Source: Candidatus Omnitrophota bacterium (lineage in GTDB: Bacteria > Omnitrophota > Gorgyraeia > Gygaellales > Profunditerraquicolaceae). From it: 64,000 bases of DNA. Below, piece by piece: positions 15,001-24,000 of this stretch. Position 1 is the stretch's first letter. Each line of letters begins with the position of its first letter. The stretch covers positions 27,569 to 91,568 of the forward strand of contig JAPLLW010000015.1 in NCBI GenBank assembly GCA_026387355.1, written 5' to 3'. A program made the position numbers.

Positions 15001-18000
15001 CTCCTGAAAATGTAATTGCAGAATTAGAGGAAGCAAAGCTCAAATATAAAACTAAACAGATATTTTTTGATGACAGCACTTTTACTTATGACAGAAAATG
15101 GCTTAAGGCATTTGCAGAGAAGTATAAAAGTAAAATAAGTTTACCTTTTTTCTGCTGGGTCTATCCTACTAATGTTGATGAGGAGTTATTGGAGATATTG
15201 AAATTTATGAATTGCCGCGCAGTGGAGATGGGGGTGGAAAGTTTGAATCCGGAAATAAGAGCCGGGTTATTCCACCGTTTCTATACTAATTCCACTGTAG
15301 AAAGAGCAATAAATTTATTTAATAAGAATAATATATTTTGCGTCGTAGACAATATAAAAGGTTTCTCCGGAAACATTGAGGAAGAAGCAAGGGAGCTTGC
15401 CGATTTTTATAACAGGAATAGACCGAATAAGATATATATGTTTGAGCACCGCTCTTTTCCTAAAACAGAAATCAGGGAGTTGATTAAATCAAGCAAAGAA
15501 AGTCCTAAAAAAGAGTTGTTGCCTTTTACTATTAATACTGAAGTGACCACTTGTGTAGCTAAACAACTGGAGCTACTTTTAGTTTTAATTTATTTTCTTC
15601 CTCCTAGCGCAGTGCGCTTTATATTAAAAAACAGGCTTTATCGGTTTTTCCCGCCATTACGATCGTATAATCTTCTGGAAATGTTCCCTTATTTCTTAAA
15701 TTTACTAAAAATAAAAAAACTCCGTTTATGGTATCCGATTAGGGGTACCAGAAGAAGGTATGTCCATTATATTTTTTCTAACCCCTTATATTTTATAAAA
15801 GGACTGCGAAGATTATGGGTATAAAAGTGGCCTTTGTTACTGGCCCGGAAGAAAATTTGGGGATTAAGTATCTTTCCGCTGTATTAAGAGGCCAAGGCCA
15901 TAAGATAAGGTTATTCTGCGATCCTCAATTGTTCAATGATGAAATTTTGTCTATAAAACCGCTTAGCTGGGTATTCGATTCGAAGAATAGATTAGTAGCG
16001 GATCTTTTAAATTACGAGCCCGATCTGATAGGTTTTTCGGTATGTACTGATTTTTCAAGCTGGGCTTATGATTTAGCTGTAAAGATCAAAGAAAAGACAA
16101 ATATCCCCATAATATTCGGCGGGATACATCCAACCTCTGTCCCTGATGAAGTGATGAGCTTGGAAGCAGTTGATATGGCCTGTATTGGAGAGGGCGAATA
16201 TCCCCTGTTGGAATTAGCTGATAGTTTGAGTAAGGGGCAAGTCGATTGTAATATTAAAAACATATGGTTTAGAAAAGACGGGCGCATTATAAAAAATCCA
16301 GTCAGGCAGTTAGTTGATATAAACAACCTTCCTTTCCCTGATCATGAATTGTACTGCAGTAGAAAAAATGCTTATTTTAGGATAGGCTATCATACAAGCG
16401 CTTCAAGGGGGTGTCCTTATAATTGTAGTTATTGCTGCCACTCAATATTAAAGAATTTATACGGCCAAGCCAATTATTATAGAATACGAAACCCGATTAA
16501 CCTAATTAAAGAGCTAAGCATAGCCTTAGAACGCTATAGATTTAAAGTAGTTAGATTCCACGATGATGTGTTTCCATGCGATGTGCAGTGGTTGGAAGAA
16601 TTTGCGGATTCGTATCGCAAAAATGTTTTCGTGCCATTTATCTGCTATCTTCATCCGGAATTGGTAAATGAAGACAGAATAGCTCTTCTTAAAAAAGCGG
16701 GCTGTTCAGAGATAAGGTTAGGTATTCAAACATTGAATCATAAGATTAGAAAAGAAATACTAAATAGGCATGAGTCCAATGAGGTAATTGAAAAATCGTT
16801 GGATTTAATAAGAGGGAATGGGATTAAGGCTGTTACGGAAAATATGCTCGGTTTACCTAAACAAAATGATTCAGATATAATCTCAATGATACATTTTTAC
16901 AATAAGAACAGGGTGACGAGAAGCCACTATTTTTGGCTTAGATATTATCCAGGGCTTGGAATTCAAAAACATAAAGATAGTTCTGGACTGTCGTTCCATA
17001 AAGAAAAATACGGTAAAGTATTTACGCAGGGCGGAGATACTTATAAAGATACCAACCCGAAATTAATAACTACTTTGTATATCTTGCCTTTTTTGCCGCG
17101 ATGGCTGGTTGAATTTATAATAAATAAAAAGATCTGGAGATTTCTTCCCGGGTTTATCCCGCTCTGGTCACTTAATTTAATCGCTAATGTTACAAGCAAC
17201 TCTAGCTCTGACAGAATTTGGAGAGCACGCACAATCAGAAGGTATTTGTTTCCTGTTATTAATGTTAATAAATGAAAACCAAAATACCCAGAAACAGGCT
17301 TTATTTTAAGAAAACTTTACTTATTAAGGCGTTTGCTTTTTTATTTACTCCTAAAGCGTTGGAAGGAGAGTACGTCGAGATTTTTGAGAAAGAATTTAAA
17401 GATTTTATAGGGGCAAGGCATGCAATTGCCGTTTCAAGCGGTAAACTAGCTTTATATTTATGTTTAAAATATTTGGGCGCAGAAAAAGGAGATAAAGTGA
17501 TTTTATCTGATTTTAATGTTCCTGAAGTCCCTGCGTTATTAGCTAGCTCTGGGTTTATCCCGGTATTAGTCGATATTGATCGCGACACTTTTAATATCAA
17601 CCCGGATTTAATTGAGCAAAATATTGATAAAAGAACAAAGTTTATAGTTGTTACTCATATGTTTGGAGTTCCCGCGGAGATTAAAAGGATCTGCACGATT
17701 GCTAAAAAACATAACCTTAAAATAATCGAAGATGCATGTCAGGCTTTGGGTTCTGAATACCAAGGACATAAGGTCGGGATTTTCGGAGACGCCGGATATT
17801 TTAGTTTAGGCTTGCTAAAACCCTTGAGTGCCCTAAATGGGGGGATAATCGTTACAAATAATAATGAATTAGCAAATAATATAAGGAAAGAAATAGCCCA
17901 ATATAGCAACATAGAAAGGATTAAACTGTTTAAGGACCTGATAAAGACGGGCTTAATAATTTTTCTGACTAATAAAGAAGTTTTTAATTATTTAACGTAT

Positions 18001-21000: not shown

Positions 21001-24000
21001 TTATTCTACGGGGTATGATTTAACAAAAAGCAATAATATATTAGCTCATGATCCAAAAATTGAAGAAAAGTTTAAGCAATGTTGTTTCCAGGGCATAGGT
21101 TTTATTTTTGCCGAAGAAAGCATACTTTATCCAGGCACTCTTTACGAAACTTTAGAAAACTCCGTAAATAAAGTGAATAAAGAATATCAGGTCTATTTTT
21201 TAAATGGGCTTAAAGAAAAACGCCTGCTTTTAAGAGAAACGTTCCAATAAAGAGAATAGTGAGAGTTCGATAAATCATGCGTATAGCGATAATGCAACCC
21301 GGTTATTTACCATGGTTGGGTTTTTTTGAATTGATGCATAACTGCGACGTTTTTGTTTTATTCGATGATGTGCAGTATACGAAAAAAGACTGGCGCAGTA
21401 GAAATAGAATTAGGACAAAAAACGGCTGGATCTGGCTTTCTGTTCCGGTTTTGACAAAAGGAAAGCAATTCCAACTAATCAATGAAGCCAGGATAGATTA
21501 TTCATCTGATTGGAGGGAGAAGCATTTAAAGGCAGTGGAGATAAATTATTATAAATCCAAGTACTTTAAAGAATATTTTACTGGTCTAAAAAAAATATTA
21601 AGTTTTGATTGGGAGTATCTTGTTGAACTAGATCTGGAACTAATCAGGTGGCTGGCATTGGAGTTGGGTATCCGAAGGGAAATTATTAAATCATCAAGCC
21701 TTAAGACTAGCGGTCGCAGGGAAGATAAAATAATTGCAGTTTGTAAGGCGCTCAAGGCAAACGAGCTTTATGATAGTCAGGCTGCCGCGAGTTTTCTGGA
21801 TGCGCAAGTGTTTCGTGCGCAGGGCATTAGTCTGTTTTTCCAGAATTACGCTCACCCTGTTTATACCCAGCTGCATAGCCCGTTTGTCCCTTTTATGTCC
21901 AGCCTGGATCTACTTTTTAACCAAGGAGCGCAGAGCTCCGAGATTATTTTAAGCGGCACAAACCTTGGCCTTGAAAAAGTCTTATGAACACAAAAATTTT
22001 TACTCTAGTAACCCTGCTTTTTATTTTAACAGGATCGATTTTTTTAAGACTATACAAAATTGGTGATAAGCCGGTATGGTTTGATGAAACAGTAAGTATT
22101 TCGCATGCCGAGAAACCGCTGGATTTTTATTTAACCTCGCCCCGGGTAAATTATAAACCGGTTTATTTTTTTCTACTTAACCGCTGGCTTTATTTATTCG
22201 GGGAAGATGCATTTAATTTGAGGCTTTTTTCATTAATCTGTGGTGTCTTAAATATTTTATTTATTTTTAAGCTCGCTAGCTTGCTATTTAACGAAGAAAC
22301 CGGGTTACTCAGCGCTTTTTTACTTGGGATTTCAGTTTTTCATATATACCAGTGTCAGCAGATTCGGCAGTTTTCTTTTATTGCTTTGCTAGCTACGGCT
22401 GCAGTCTATTATTTAACTAAATTTTATAAAACCGGCAGGATAGTTTATTTGGGTCTTCTTCTAGCCATCAATATTCTGCTGATCAATACTTATCCTACAG
22501 GGTTTTTAGTGGTCATGGCAGAAGGTATTTTTGCGGCTCTTTATCTGCGCGGAATTTTGTTACGTAAATGGATATTTTCATTTATTCCGCTAGCCTTATT
22601 TGCTGGTCTGTGGTTTCTTAACAGCGATAAGTCGCACATGAAAGAGATGGCTTTTTGGATAAGTAAACCCGGATTGAAGTCGATTGTAGAGACGTTTAAT
22701 ACTTTAAGCTGGGGAGGGCCTAGATATGGATTGGATGATTTTAAGGTAACTTTTGCAGCCCCTTGGTTAATGTGGATATTTTCTCTGGGTTATTTTGTTC
22801 TTATTTTATTCGGCTTTTATAGCGCTAAAGCAACTCGTAAAGCAGATGATAAGCGTGCAAAGGTATTGCTTTCTCTTTGGTTAGTCATCCCGGTGCTATT
22901 CACCTATTTATACTCCCAGATGAATGATTTCTCAATTTATGCAATAAAACACTTTATAATTATCTTGCCGGCATTCTGTATTAGCGTTGCTGTTGGTTTT
23001 CTTTGTTTTAGTCATAAGGTTAAGATTGTAATTATTTCTTCAATATGTTTATTGAGTTTTATTCCTTTGTCGATAGTATATAATAATTCCTTCTCGGCTG
23101 ATTGGAAGAATAGTACTGAATATGTCAGTAGTTTAATAGCAGAGGGGGATGCAGTGGTTGTTTCTTCACTATCTGAAGTTGTAACGTTCATGTTTTATTT
23201 TGATAAGAAAAAGCACACGCTCCAAGATTTTGATATTTATGGTAAAATTAGTCGAGAGAATTATAAGAACAATGTATTTTTAGCTGGGAGAAACAATCAA
23301 ATTATTGGCATAAAGCTTGGAGATAAGAATGTTGATTTTGAGAGTGACCTCCAGGAAAAGATTATGAACAATAGCGCGATTAAGAAGAAGAGGGTTTGGA
23401 CTATGATCTCCCGTTCGACCTATCCCCCAATCACACTTGGGGTAATAGGTTTTATGGAAAGAAATTTCCGTAAACGCGGCTGTCGTAGTTTCAGGGGGGT
23501 AGAAGTCCGCTGTTTCGATCCATTAGTTATCAAAAATCAATGAGAATAAAAGAAAAAGTTTTTCTGGGTTGTGCTTATCTTAAGACAATTCTCTTTGGTA
23601 TAAAGAAGCCGCTTTTAGTCAGTTGGGAGCTTACTAAAAGGTGTAATTTGCGTTGTAAATATTGCGGCTCTTGGCTTAAGCAAGATGATGAGATCGGGCC
23701 TTCTCAGGCTCTTGAGCTTATCCGGTCTTTATACGCAATGGGTACTAGGGTGATAAGGTTTACCGGAGGAGAGCCTTTATTAAGGGAAGACCTGCCAAGG
23801 CTGGTTAATCACTGCAGTGATTTGGGTATTTCTGTAGGTATTGCCTCTAACGGAATCTTATTTCCAGGGATGGCTAATGAGTTTAAACGTTTGGCGGCGG
23901 TGAGTTTTAGCCTAGATGGACCGGAAGATATTCATGATTTTATACGGGGCAAAGGCTCCCATAAGCAGGTAATGCAGGCTATTGATGCGGCAAAAGAAAA

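Follow-up and report, generated by a model that had tools for sequence, protein, structure and literature searches.

Five consecutive genes in a metagenome-assembled genome (MAG) of the phylum Omnitrophota form part of a long operon which, as we believe with modest confidence, serves to build a cell-envelope glycoconjugate: an amino sugar would be made, loaded onto a lipid carrier and transferred by GT-C enzymes to a target at the cell surface. The five-gene stretch by itself represents the well-known logic of lipid-carrier glycosylation, and the presence of two GT-C enzymes, a DegT-family aminotransferase and a GT2 glycosyltransferase resembling ArnC, GtrB and DPMS makes a flow from amino sugar through polyprenyl-phosphate sugar to extracytoplasmic transfer plausible.

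Five genes within a long operon

The genes are close-set on the + strand at positions 17272–23543 of the window, that is, of the whole 64-kb stretch of DNA analyzed. The initial annotation had read them as DegT-like, GT2, GT-C, WbqC-like and GT-C. Our ORFs agree with it in both position and order, and so do the Pfam matches, which were obtained for all but the third; the Pfam scan covered window ORFs of at least 150 aa, minus two minus-strand ORFs overlapping other genes. The Pfam, profile and structure matches of the stretch are far above the chance level. The gene spacing is −4, 8, 65, 26 and −4 nt (negative values being overlaps), and the gene following the fifth ORF (start 23540) overlaps it by 4 nt; because of these short gaps and overlaps, the layout is operon-like.

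The five genes are a small and arbitrary part of a + strand operon of about 28 kb (388–28654), which contains 11 radical SAM (rSAM) genes. A terminator scan found no strong internal terminator before 28765, where a hairpin (28765–28791; 12-bp stem, then a T-run) is situated between the operon end (28654) and the end of a convergent gene (28781). The stretch had been called a module, and this view could not be maintained in the sense of a self-contained unit, because it is a slice of the operon and the DegT and GT2 genes are mobile among relatives. In six related loci (L001–L006), the conserved block is ORF3-(AsnB)-WbqC-PMT_2-rSAM-rSAM, where ORF3 and PMT_2 are the third and fifth genes of our stretch, and DegT and GT2 change place. 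An AsnB-like glutamine amidotransferase gene is located between the ORF3 homologue and WbqC in the related loci and has moved to the operon start here (1753–3642, + strand; Pfam Asn_synthase, 2.7e-84); in 29 of 80 loci, such a gene and WbqC are no more than 10 kb apart. The PMT_2 gene is followed by two small radical SAM genes (23540–25515, + strand; 324 and 327 aa; PF04055, 4.8e-26 and 2.3e-21), and the order PMT_2-rSAM-rSAM or PMT_2-rSAM-B12 rSAM is seen also in L001–L003 and L005.

The aminotransferase and the glycosyltransferases

The first gene (17272–18528, + strand) encodes a divergent PLP aminotransferase of the DegT/DnrJ/EryC1 family (418 aa; Pfam PF01041, 1.3e-65). The PF01041 match is strong over residues 30–205 only; the Schiff-base Lys is kept within FSLGLLKPL, and an inserted hydrophobic segment, about 60 aa long, occupies about residues 215–275. 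A full-length orthologue having the same insertion and 33% identity is encoded after WbqC in L004. The top PDB match was glutamine:scyllo-inositol transaminase (7b0d, 6.9e-47), ArnB (1mdo, 3.4e-27) being placed under many other DegT structures; judging from sequence, the protein is nearer to glutamine:scyllo-inosose-type transaminases than to ArnB. The ArnB equivalog model NF008658, whose cutoff is 631 bits, gave it a score of 128.6, and it is thus no ArnB orthologue.

The second gene (18537–19259, + strand) encodes a short GT2 glycosyltransferase of 240 aa without a TM helix (Pfam PF00535, Glycos_transf_2, 7.7e-23). In the PDB search, its catalytic domain falls nearest the ArnC/GtrB/DPMS clade: the best matches were ArnC (9bhc, 2.6e-10), GtrB (5ekp, 9.6e-10) and DPMS (5mlz, 3.4e-8), and the first seven distinct PDB sequences all belonged to these three types. 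The best NCBIfam matches include PgfS and ArnC, with weaker ones to dolichyl-phosphate hexose transferase and PpgS models; the ArnC equivalog NF007986 gave 54.5 bits against a cutoff of 529, showing that the protein is no ArnC orthologue. The TM profile detected no hydrophobic segment; the C-terminal hydrophobic tail is short, and the TM helices in which ArnC and GtrB end are missing. A conserved SNFAD occupies the site of the ArnC DAD; four orthologues keep the NFAD, and D100 does not vary, the last Asp being the only invariant residue of F-A-D. We regard this enzyme as a candidate polyprenyl-phosphate sugar synthase; because the C-terminal TM helices are absent and F-A-D replaces D-x-D, its use of polyprenyl phosphate is a property that we infer.

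The fifth gene (ORF5; 21984–23543, + strand) encodes a PMT_2-type GT-C glycosyltransferase of 519 aa with about 10 TM segments (PF13231, 9.8e-13, 49 bits, cutoff 26.1), and the protein is identical to one in NCBI annotated as "glycosyltransferase family 39" from a MAG of Candidatus Omnitrophica. The VWFDET motif previously ascribed to this gene can be read directly from the sequence at residues 31–36 (V31-W-F-D34-E35-T36; codons 22074–22091, + strand) and forms the loop-1 acidic motif. In all 17 aligned homologues, whose identity goes down to 21%, D34 and E35 are unchanged, and the conservation anticipated for the acidic residues of a GT-C enzyme was therefore confirmed here.

The third gene (ORF3; 19325–21250, + strand) encodes a membrane protein of 641 aa having no sequence match in Pfam, NCBIfam or PDB. 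Structure and profile evidence assigns it as a divergent GT-C-fold membrane glycosyltransferase: residues 1–405 constitute a polytopic N-terminal domain with about 11–13 TM segments and a GT-C fold, and residues from about 415 to 640 an all-alpha repeat domain. We count it as a divergent GT-C because hhalign connects it with the ORF5 family and because its far relatives score above the PMT_2 cutoff; the earlier GT-C call thus stands on structure and profiles, but not on family libraries. The model of the TM domain is of low confidence (pLDDT 45–70), and structure and profile comparison puts ORF3 closer to ALG12, AglB and Pmt4 than to ArnT. According to the TM profile, the acidic loop of both ORF3 and ORF5 is located about 10–11 residues past TM1, and the loop-1 motif of ORF3 is C32-E33-AFRATAAH-D42...F-D53-Y. 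The E33 position is acidic in 139 of 142 relatives, that of D42 in 124 of 145 and that of D53 in 120 of 147. Cys32 aligns with D34 of ORF5, the canonical catalytic Asp site, which is acidic in only 98 of 137 relatives; the acidic residues looked for in a GT-C are thus kept in part by ORF3, which has E33, D42 and D53 but a Cys at the canonical Asp. Two GT-C-fold membrane transferases are indeed encoded on either side of WbqC, as first described. Neither matches any NCBIfam model, so neither is an ArnT orthologue, and by analogy their donors are predicted to be lipid-phosphate-linked sugars.

The WbqC protein and its partners

The fourth gene (21277–21987, + strand) encodes a soluble WbqC-family protein of 236 aa (PF08889, 2.3e-76, 256.9 bits, cutoff 21.3), the match spanning model positions 1–216 of 218. 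The family, which occurs in at least 579 species representatives, takes its name from the O-antigen cluster of Escherichia coli serogroup O121; the literature searched contained no link between WbqC and O121. No assigned function was found in the papers searched either, and we know of no paper that gives WbqC one.

The predicted fold of WbqC resembles BshC and the catalytic domain of class I aminoacyl-tRNA synthetases; the model is nearest BshC and more remotely like MshC, sequence similarity to either being undetectable. On the basis of this model, WbqC is a candidate cytoplasmic ligase that may N-acylate amino sugars with an amino acid; in the reactions of BshC and MshC, the amine of a sugar receives a cysteine (PMC4360819). 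Among 80 species whose WbqC contexts were compared, 49 have an NDP-hexose 4,6-dehydratase (RmlB-like) gene within 300 bp of WbqC, often followed by DegT; 43 have DegT nearby, 58 a radical SAM gene and about 18 GNAT. PGAP-annotated plasmids have the order DegT-SDR-DegT-GNAT-WbqC-PIG-L deacetylase, parallel to MshB/MshC/MshD, and WbqC elsewhere thus shares the deacetylase-ligase-acetyltransferase logic of mycothiol (MshB/MshC/MshD) and bacillithiol (BshB/BshC) synthesis. Unlike BshC, however, WbqC is half the size and has no coiled-coil domain, and its partnership with NDP-hexose 4,6-dehydratases and DegT transaminases points to a nucleotide-sugar substrate, not a thiol cofactor.

Because the usual partners of WbqC are cytoplasmic nucleotide-sugar enzymes and not GT-Cs, its location between two GT-C genes, which is particular to this lineage, implies no periplasmic role. 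The dTDP-4-amino-4,6-dideoxyhexose (viosamine-type) O-antigen pathways with N-acyl amino acids, such as that of E. coli O121, whose O-antigen has an amide-linked N-acetylglycine (PMC7685785), are similar in that an RmlB-like dehydratase adjoins WbqC in the 49 species mentioned above. They differ in that no RmlB-like gene is in reach of WbqC in the window or in the close relatives L001–L010, which have radical SAM and GT-C neighbors instead.

Proposed route and competing explanations

Gene content, families and folds, conserved acidic residues, synteny and the setting in an operon are observed; the substrates, step order and acceptor that we infer are as follows. In the cytoplasm, the DegT-family aminotransferase would convert a keto-sugar precursor to an amino sugar; no keto-sugar-forming enzyme (4,6-dehydratase or sugar dehydrogenase) was found in the 64 kb. 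WbqC would tailor the amino sugar; the likeliest reaction, comparable to that of MshC in the mycothiol pathway, would be one in which ATP drives the joining of an amino acid or other carboxylate to the amine of the sugar. Further changes may come from the AsnB-like amidotransferase and from several of the operon's radical SAM enzymes. On the cytoplasmic side of the membrane, the short GT2 would then attach a sugar to polyprenyl phosphate. After flipping, the two GT-C-fold transferases, one of PMT_2 type with the invariant Asp-Glu and the other of an uncharacterized subfamily with a C-terminal helical-repeat domain, would pass the lipid-linked sugar to an acceptor, or to two, beyond the cytoplasmic membrane. 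No flippase gene was found within the operon (388–28654), and the sole nearby candidate for flipping a lipid-linked sugar is a single-domain EamA (half-size DMT) membrane protein of 139 aa (30847–31266, + strand; PF00892, 1.7e-26), which belongs to a separate transcription unit and matches no ArnE/ArnF model.

The pairing of a GtrB/DPMS-clade GT2 with GT-C-fold transferases is common to the three-component systems GtrA/GtrB/Gtr*, CsbB/GtcA/YfhO and Ppm1/Pmt, and a YfhO-like protein takes the place of PMT_2 in related loci. These systems, however, have neither amino-sugar tailoring genes nor a radical SAM array, and no GtrA/GtcA-family flippase was found here. By analogy, the present system appears to work in the manner of the lipid-carrier systems Arn, Gtr and PMT, but it is not a member of the Arn pathway.

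It is rather unlikely that the GT-Cs serve to assemble or modify a polysaccharide with polyprenyl-phosphate monosaccharide donors, as Emb/Aft-like polymerizing or branching enzymes or Gtr-type O-antigen modifiers, giving a radical-SAM-tailored exopolysaccharide or LPS-like polymer: Wzx, Wzy, Wzz and an initiating phosphoglycosyl transferase were not recognized in the window, and this would be a sub-case of the lipid-carrier glycoconjugate and no true alternative. We consider unlikely also a PMT-type protein O-glycosylation, in which GT2 would supply the polyprenyl-phosphate sugar, and Ser/Thr of secreted proteins would be glycosylated by either GT-C or by both. An S/T/N/P-rich secreted protein (28781–30475, − strand) is a candidate acceptor, but it is encoded on the opposite strand; PMT_2 is a broad family including ArnT-like enzymes, MIR domains are absent, and the amino-sugar genes DegT, WbqC and AsnB are atypical of O-mannosylation.

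The many radical SAM genes and their best matches to lipid enzymes mean that the product could be a lipid and not a glycan. Such a lipid might be hopanoid-like, span the membrane or be tailored by radical SAM enzymes in some other way, and its head group would be an amino sugar; GT2 would glycosylate it directly like HpnI, the adjacency of the GT-Cs being secondary. HpnJ is the best match of the B12 radical SAM proteins (263.7 and 160.3 bits) and Tes, the tetraether synthase, that of the zinc-ribbon ones (165.6 and 157.5 bits), "ladderane-type" and "lipid biosynthesis B12/rSAM" models match as well, and a fatty-acid/polyene-type lipid cluster is located downstream (45292–63885). All these scores are, however, far under the model cutoffs (577.6, 450 and 360), the operon has no squalene-hopene cyclase or glycerol-lipid gene, and two GT-C enzymes imply lipid-phosphate-linked donors; we therefore judge such a lipid quite improbable.

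The Arn-like logic first proposed for these genes is sound only as a general plan: the locus shares with Arn (Pmr) a DegT-family aminotransferase, a GT2 that is nearest to ArnC among solved structures, a GT-C-fold transferase and the presumed flow from nucleotide amino sugar through polyprenyl-phosphate sugar to extracytoplasmic transfer. A true Arn pathway, in which ArnB, ArnC and ArnT orthologues would add 4-amino-4-deoxy-L-arabinose to lipid A phosphates and lower the surface charge, is hardly credible: no protein reaches an Arn equivalog cutoff, the aminotransferase and ORF3 have nearer relatives than ArnB and ArnT, the ORFs scanned across the 64 kb include no ArnA-like decarboxylase/formyltransferase, ArnD-like deacetylase, NDP-sugar dehydratase or match to an ArnE/F model, and the locus differs also in its GT2 without TM helices, its two GT-Cs, WbqC and many radical SAM enzymes.

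Omnitrophota is a phylum known nearly only from metagenome-assembled genomes, and the occurrence of 11 radical SAM genes beside glycosylation genes suggests an unusual surface chemistry. A more specific form of the glycoconjugate explanation, which we regard as doubtful, is an undescribed pathway that would occur only in Omnitrophota and their PVC relatives. WbqC would aminoacylate an amino sugar, about twelve radical SAM enzymes would remodel it extensively, and after its export on a lipid carrier the two GT-Cs would install it. ORF3 reveals a large GT-C subfamily (1639 cluster representatives) largely missed by Pfam and NCBIfam. The BshC-like predicted fold and the conserved partners (4,6-dehydratase, DegT, GNAT and PIG-L deacetylase) lead to the testable hypothesis that WbqC ligates amino acids or acyl groups to NDP-amino sugars; if true, this would be the first biochemical function for the whole of this widespread family and would account for amide-linked amino acids on O-antigen sugars.

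Five genes inside a radical SAM-rich operon

The initial annotation placed five ORFs at positions 17272-23543, and all of them were recovered on the + strand with exactly these boundaries. A DegT gene (17272-18528; Pfam DegT_DnrJ_EryC1, 1.3e-65) is followed by a GT2 gene (18537-19259; Glycos_transf_2, 7.7e-23), by ORF3 (19325-21250), which has no Pfam match, by a WbqC gene (21277-21987; WbqC, 2.3e-76) and by ORF5 (21984-23543), whose PMT_2 match (9.8e-13) is above the cutoff. The spacing along the stretch is -4, 8, 65, 26 and -4 nt, and there is a 4-nt overlap with the next gene too. 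The VWFDET motif that had been reported for ORF5 corresponds to residues 31-36 of its protein, which is identical to an NCBI protein from a metagenome-assembled genome of Candidatus Omnitrophica.

These five genes make up only part of a co-directional array at 388-28654 (+), at the end of which a terminator scan found a hairpin with a 12-bp stem (28765-28791). Of its 11 radical SAM (rSAM) genes, five encode a B12-binding domain and two the HMPTM zinc ribbon; the remaining four are smaller, and a SPASM domain is present in two of these. The array also contains two DegT genes, two short GT2 genes, an AsnB-like amidotransferase, a GDSL esterase, a TPR protein and two conserved proteins without family match. 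Arrays similar to it are seen in related Omnitrophota and PVC loci (L001-L014).

All the ORF3 homologues with examined contigs, coming from several metagenomes, lie in comparable rSAM-rich clusters, and the conserved block is ORF3-AsnB-WbqC, then PMT_2 or DegT, and then rSAM genes. The placement of DegT and GT2 varies among these loci, and AsnB is displaced in the window to 1753-3642. Related Omnitrophota/PVC loci have a YfhO-like protein after GT2-WbqC, or else carry PMT_2 two genes upstream of WbqC. Two further genes of the window, 7536-8363 (+; 275 aa, one TM) and 8323-10158 (+; 611 aa, about 13 TM), have no family match, and the pair was seen again in L005, one of the loci related to the window cluster. 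Homologues of the 611-aa protein that lack the partner adjoin WbqC in L012-L014 and are near it in L010 and L011. We do not count the 611-aa protein as a GT-C, since hhalign gave it a weak similarity (29%) to the PMT_2-like one of the two GT-C families and none (0.3%) to the other.

The membrane proteins ORF3 and ORF5

ORF3 matched nothing in Pfam, NCBIfam or PDB sequences, and BLASTP found no similarity to the window's remaining membrane proteins. Queries of PDB sequences with ORF3, ORF5 and WbqC, by phmmer or by profile, gave nothing useful, with one exception: the ORF5 profile matched a short AglB segment (E 0.0067). When ORF3 patterns were searched in contigs of species-representative genomes, none of the 41 pattern matches was confirmed, so the close ORF3 family is either absent from the species representatives or was missed in them. 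A word-indexed search gave only 8 homologues, and the view that the family is extremely rare was corrected by an exhaustive profile search, which found 1639 relatives, each a cluster representative (E <= 0.001). MCX5700984.1, from the Omnitrophota as well, falls in the 90%-identity cluster of ORF3's nearest homologue.

Five of ten scanned ORF3 relatives match PMT_2 at E <= 0.01, and two of the ten pass its cutoff. In the profile-profile comparison the ORF3 and ORF5 families match with 87.8% probability (E 3.3e-6) over 335 columns, and the alignment pairs C32-E33 of ORF3 with D34-E35 of ORF5. At position 33, 131 of 142 relatives have Glu and 8 have Asp; at position 32, where ORF3 itself has Cys, an acidic residue occurs in 98 of 137. 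The sites equivalent to D42 and D53 carry an acidic residue in 124/145 and 120/147 relatives, respectively. On the basis of the match to the ORF5 family, the PMT_2-matching relatives and the acidity of position 33, ORF3 is a divergent GT-C retaining the main acidic residue of its family. The proposal of two GT-C enzymes had been tied to the presence of conserved GT-C acidic residues; they are present in ORF5 and partly so in ORF3, which has C32 but keeps E33.

The genomic context of WbqC

WbqC takes its name from the O-antigen cluster of Escherichia coli O121. The O antigens of E. coli O91, O121, O167, O114, O110 and O63 bear amino acids in amide linkage. The gene in the window gave no blastn match to E. 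coli genomes, its protein gave nothing significant in a foldseek search against PDB, and the WbqC profile gave no hhalign match to the BshC sequence. We surveyed by local phmmer and hmmsearch 80 WbqC loci, out of at least 579, in species-representative genomes of many phyla. In 60 of the 80 loci WbqC has a gene for an RmlB-like NDP-hexose 4,6-dehydratase no more than 10 kb away, the distance being at most 300 bp in 49, and an rSAM gene is near it in 58 and adjoins it in 35; DegT (43 loci), GT2 (48), AsnB (29) and GNAT (about 18) are also found nearby. A GT-C occurs within six genes of WbqC in only 5 of 79 loci and adjoins it in one. The recurrent cassette in these loci (L011-L090) is rSAM(SPASM)-AsnB-GNAT-rSAM(SPASM)-WbqC-RmlB-like dehydratase-DegT, which is present in Nitrospirota, Desulfobacterota, Acidobacteriota, Elusimicrobia and others; Nitrospinota have the variant RmlB-WbqC-Tes-like rSAM-GT2-rSAM-methyltransferase. 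We know of no described pathway with the composition of the recurrent cassette.

PGAP annotation gives DegT-rSAM-methyltransferase-WbqC on a Solidesulfovibrio plasmid and DegT-SDR-DegT-GNAT-WbqC-PIG-L deacetylase on a Bacillus thuringiensis plasmid, and the latter context mirrors the MshB/MshC/MshD order. Cysteine is added onto a sugar amine by MshC, a proven enzyme, and by the putative enzyme BshC (PMC4360819), and E. coli O121 carries an amide-linked N-acetylglycine (PMC7685785). We infer that WbqC works in the cytoplasm on an NDP-amino sugar, most likely as a ligase attaching an amino acid or acyl group. That it stands between two GT-Cs is a gene order specific to this lineage and no sign of a periplasmic function. 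No RmlB-like gene was found in the window or in L001-L010, the loci related to its cluster, so the keto-sugar precursor must come from elsewhere or from one of the rSAM enzymes; this second source is speculation.

A proposed lipid-carrier glycosylation and its alternatives

The best-supported account of the five-gene stretch is a lipid-carrier glycosylation in four steps. An amino sugar would be made and tailored in the cytoplasm by DegT, WbqC, AsnB and rSAM enzymes; GT2 would move it onto polyprenyl phosphate; the lipid-linked sugar would be flipped across the membrane; and the two GT-Cs would pass it to one or two acceptors. The nearest solved relatives of GT2 are ArnC, GtrB and DPMS, which form the polyprenyl-phosphate glycosyltransferase clade. 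A weak point of the carrier account is that GT2 has an atypical motif and lacks a membrane anchor: it has just 240 aa and zero hydrophobic segments, and SNFAD stands, in it and in its orthologues, at the position of the DAD of ArnC. The GT2 subfamily travelling with WbqC (the window gene and those of the related loci L004, L005, L006 and L007) has a conserved SNFADxPFDL, in which Phe stands in place of the initial Asp of the standard DXD motif. DegT keeps the catalytic Lys and is closest to glutamine:scyllo-inositol transaminase (6.9e-47), ArnB scoring far lower. A hydrophobic insertion (about 60 aa, residues ~215-275) lies between the two domains of this long variant; it is conserved in an orthologue at L004:14682-15920 and might serve as a membrane tie. 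Two further weak points are that no keto-sugar-forming enzyme was found among the window ORFs scanned and that the operon has no flippase gene. The sole flippase candidate near the glycosylation genes is an EamA protein (30847-31266), which is encoded by a different transcription unit and does not match an ArnE/F model. It is a single-domain protein of 139 aa on the + strand, in the size class of ArnE/ArnF flippase subunits.

Protein O-glycosylation is one alternative to this account, for which a neighbouring secreted protein rich in S/T/N/P offers a possible substrate. This 564-aa protein (28781-30475, -), convergent with the operon and without family match, carries a signal or anchor at its N terminus and has a long stretch rich in Ser/Thr/Asn/Pro/Gln; it is a possible glycosylation acceptor. 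Building or decoration of a polysaccharide is another alternative. A NodU/TobZ-type carbamoyltransferase gene followed by two small membrane ORFs (35184-37610, +) has on its 5' side a MacB/FtsX-type ABC transporter pair (33398-35174), and these genes could be components of the same surface-polymer system. A glycolipid product is a further alternative, which has on its side sub-threshold matches to HpnJ and to the tetraether synthase Tes, the latter being the best match of both HMPTM zinc-ribbon rSAM proteins; a hopanoid or tetraether lipid pathway was rejected, all these best matches being far under the cutoff. A true Arn pathway is ruled out because the equivalog models gave 128.6 bits for ArnB (cutoff 631) and 54.5 for ArnC (cutoff 529), and because ArnA-like and ArnD-like genes are missing, as is an NDP-sugar dehydratase, among the scanned ORFs of the 64 kb. 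What survives of the Arn-like module in the initial annotation is the general logic of lipid-carrier glycosylation, the only thing that the window genes share with that pathway.

Downstream, genes for a UvrD-type helicase (1065 aa) and a PD-(D/E)XK nuclease (952 aa) at 38781-44836 (+), with the look of an AddA/AddB pair, stand between two biosynthetic clusters. The second cluster (45292-63885, +) is of lipid or polyene type, with a FabG-like reductase, an FAD oxidoreductase, two ketosynthases, an ACP (48786-49042), an acyltransferase, an AMP-ligase, an rSAM/SPASM protein, a LolA-like protein, an MMPL transporter, a thioesterase, an unassigned ORF of 125 aa, DUF4410, two B12 rSAM proteins and a GT2-DUF2062 fusion.

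A literature search on WbqC biochemistry and on rSAM clusters of Omnitrophota found nothing relevant. The ORF3 subfamily beyond current family models, the WbqC fold together with its context evidence, and the rSAM-rich operon at 388-28654 are undescribed in the literature searched; the five-gene stretch follows a known logic with divergent components.
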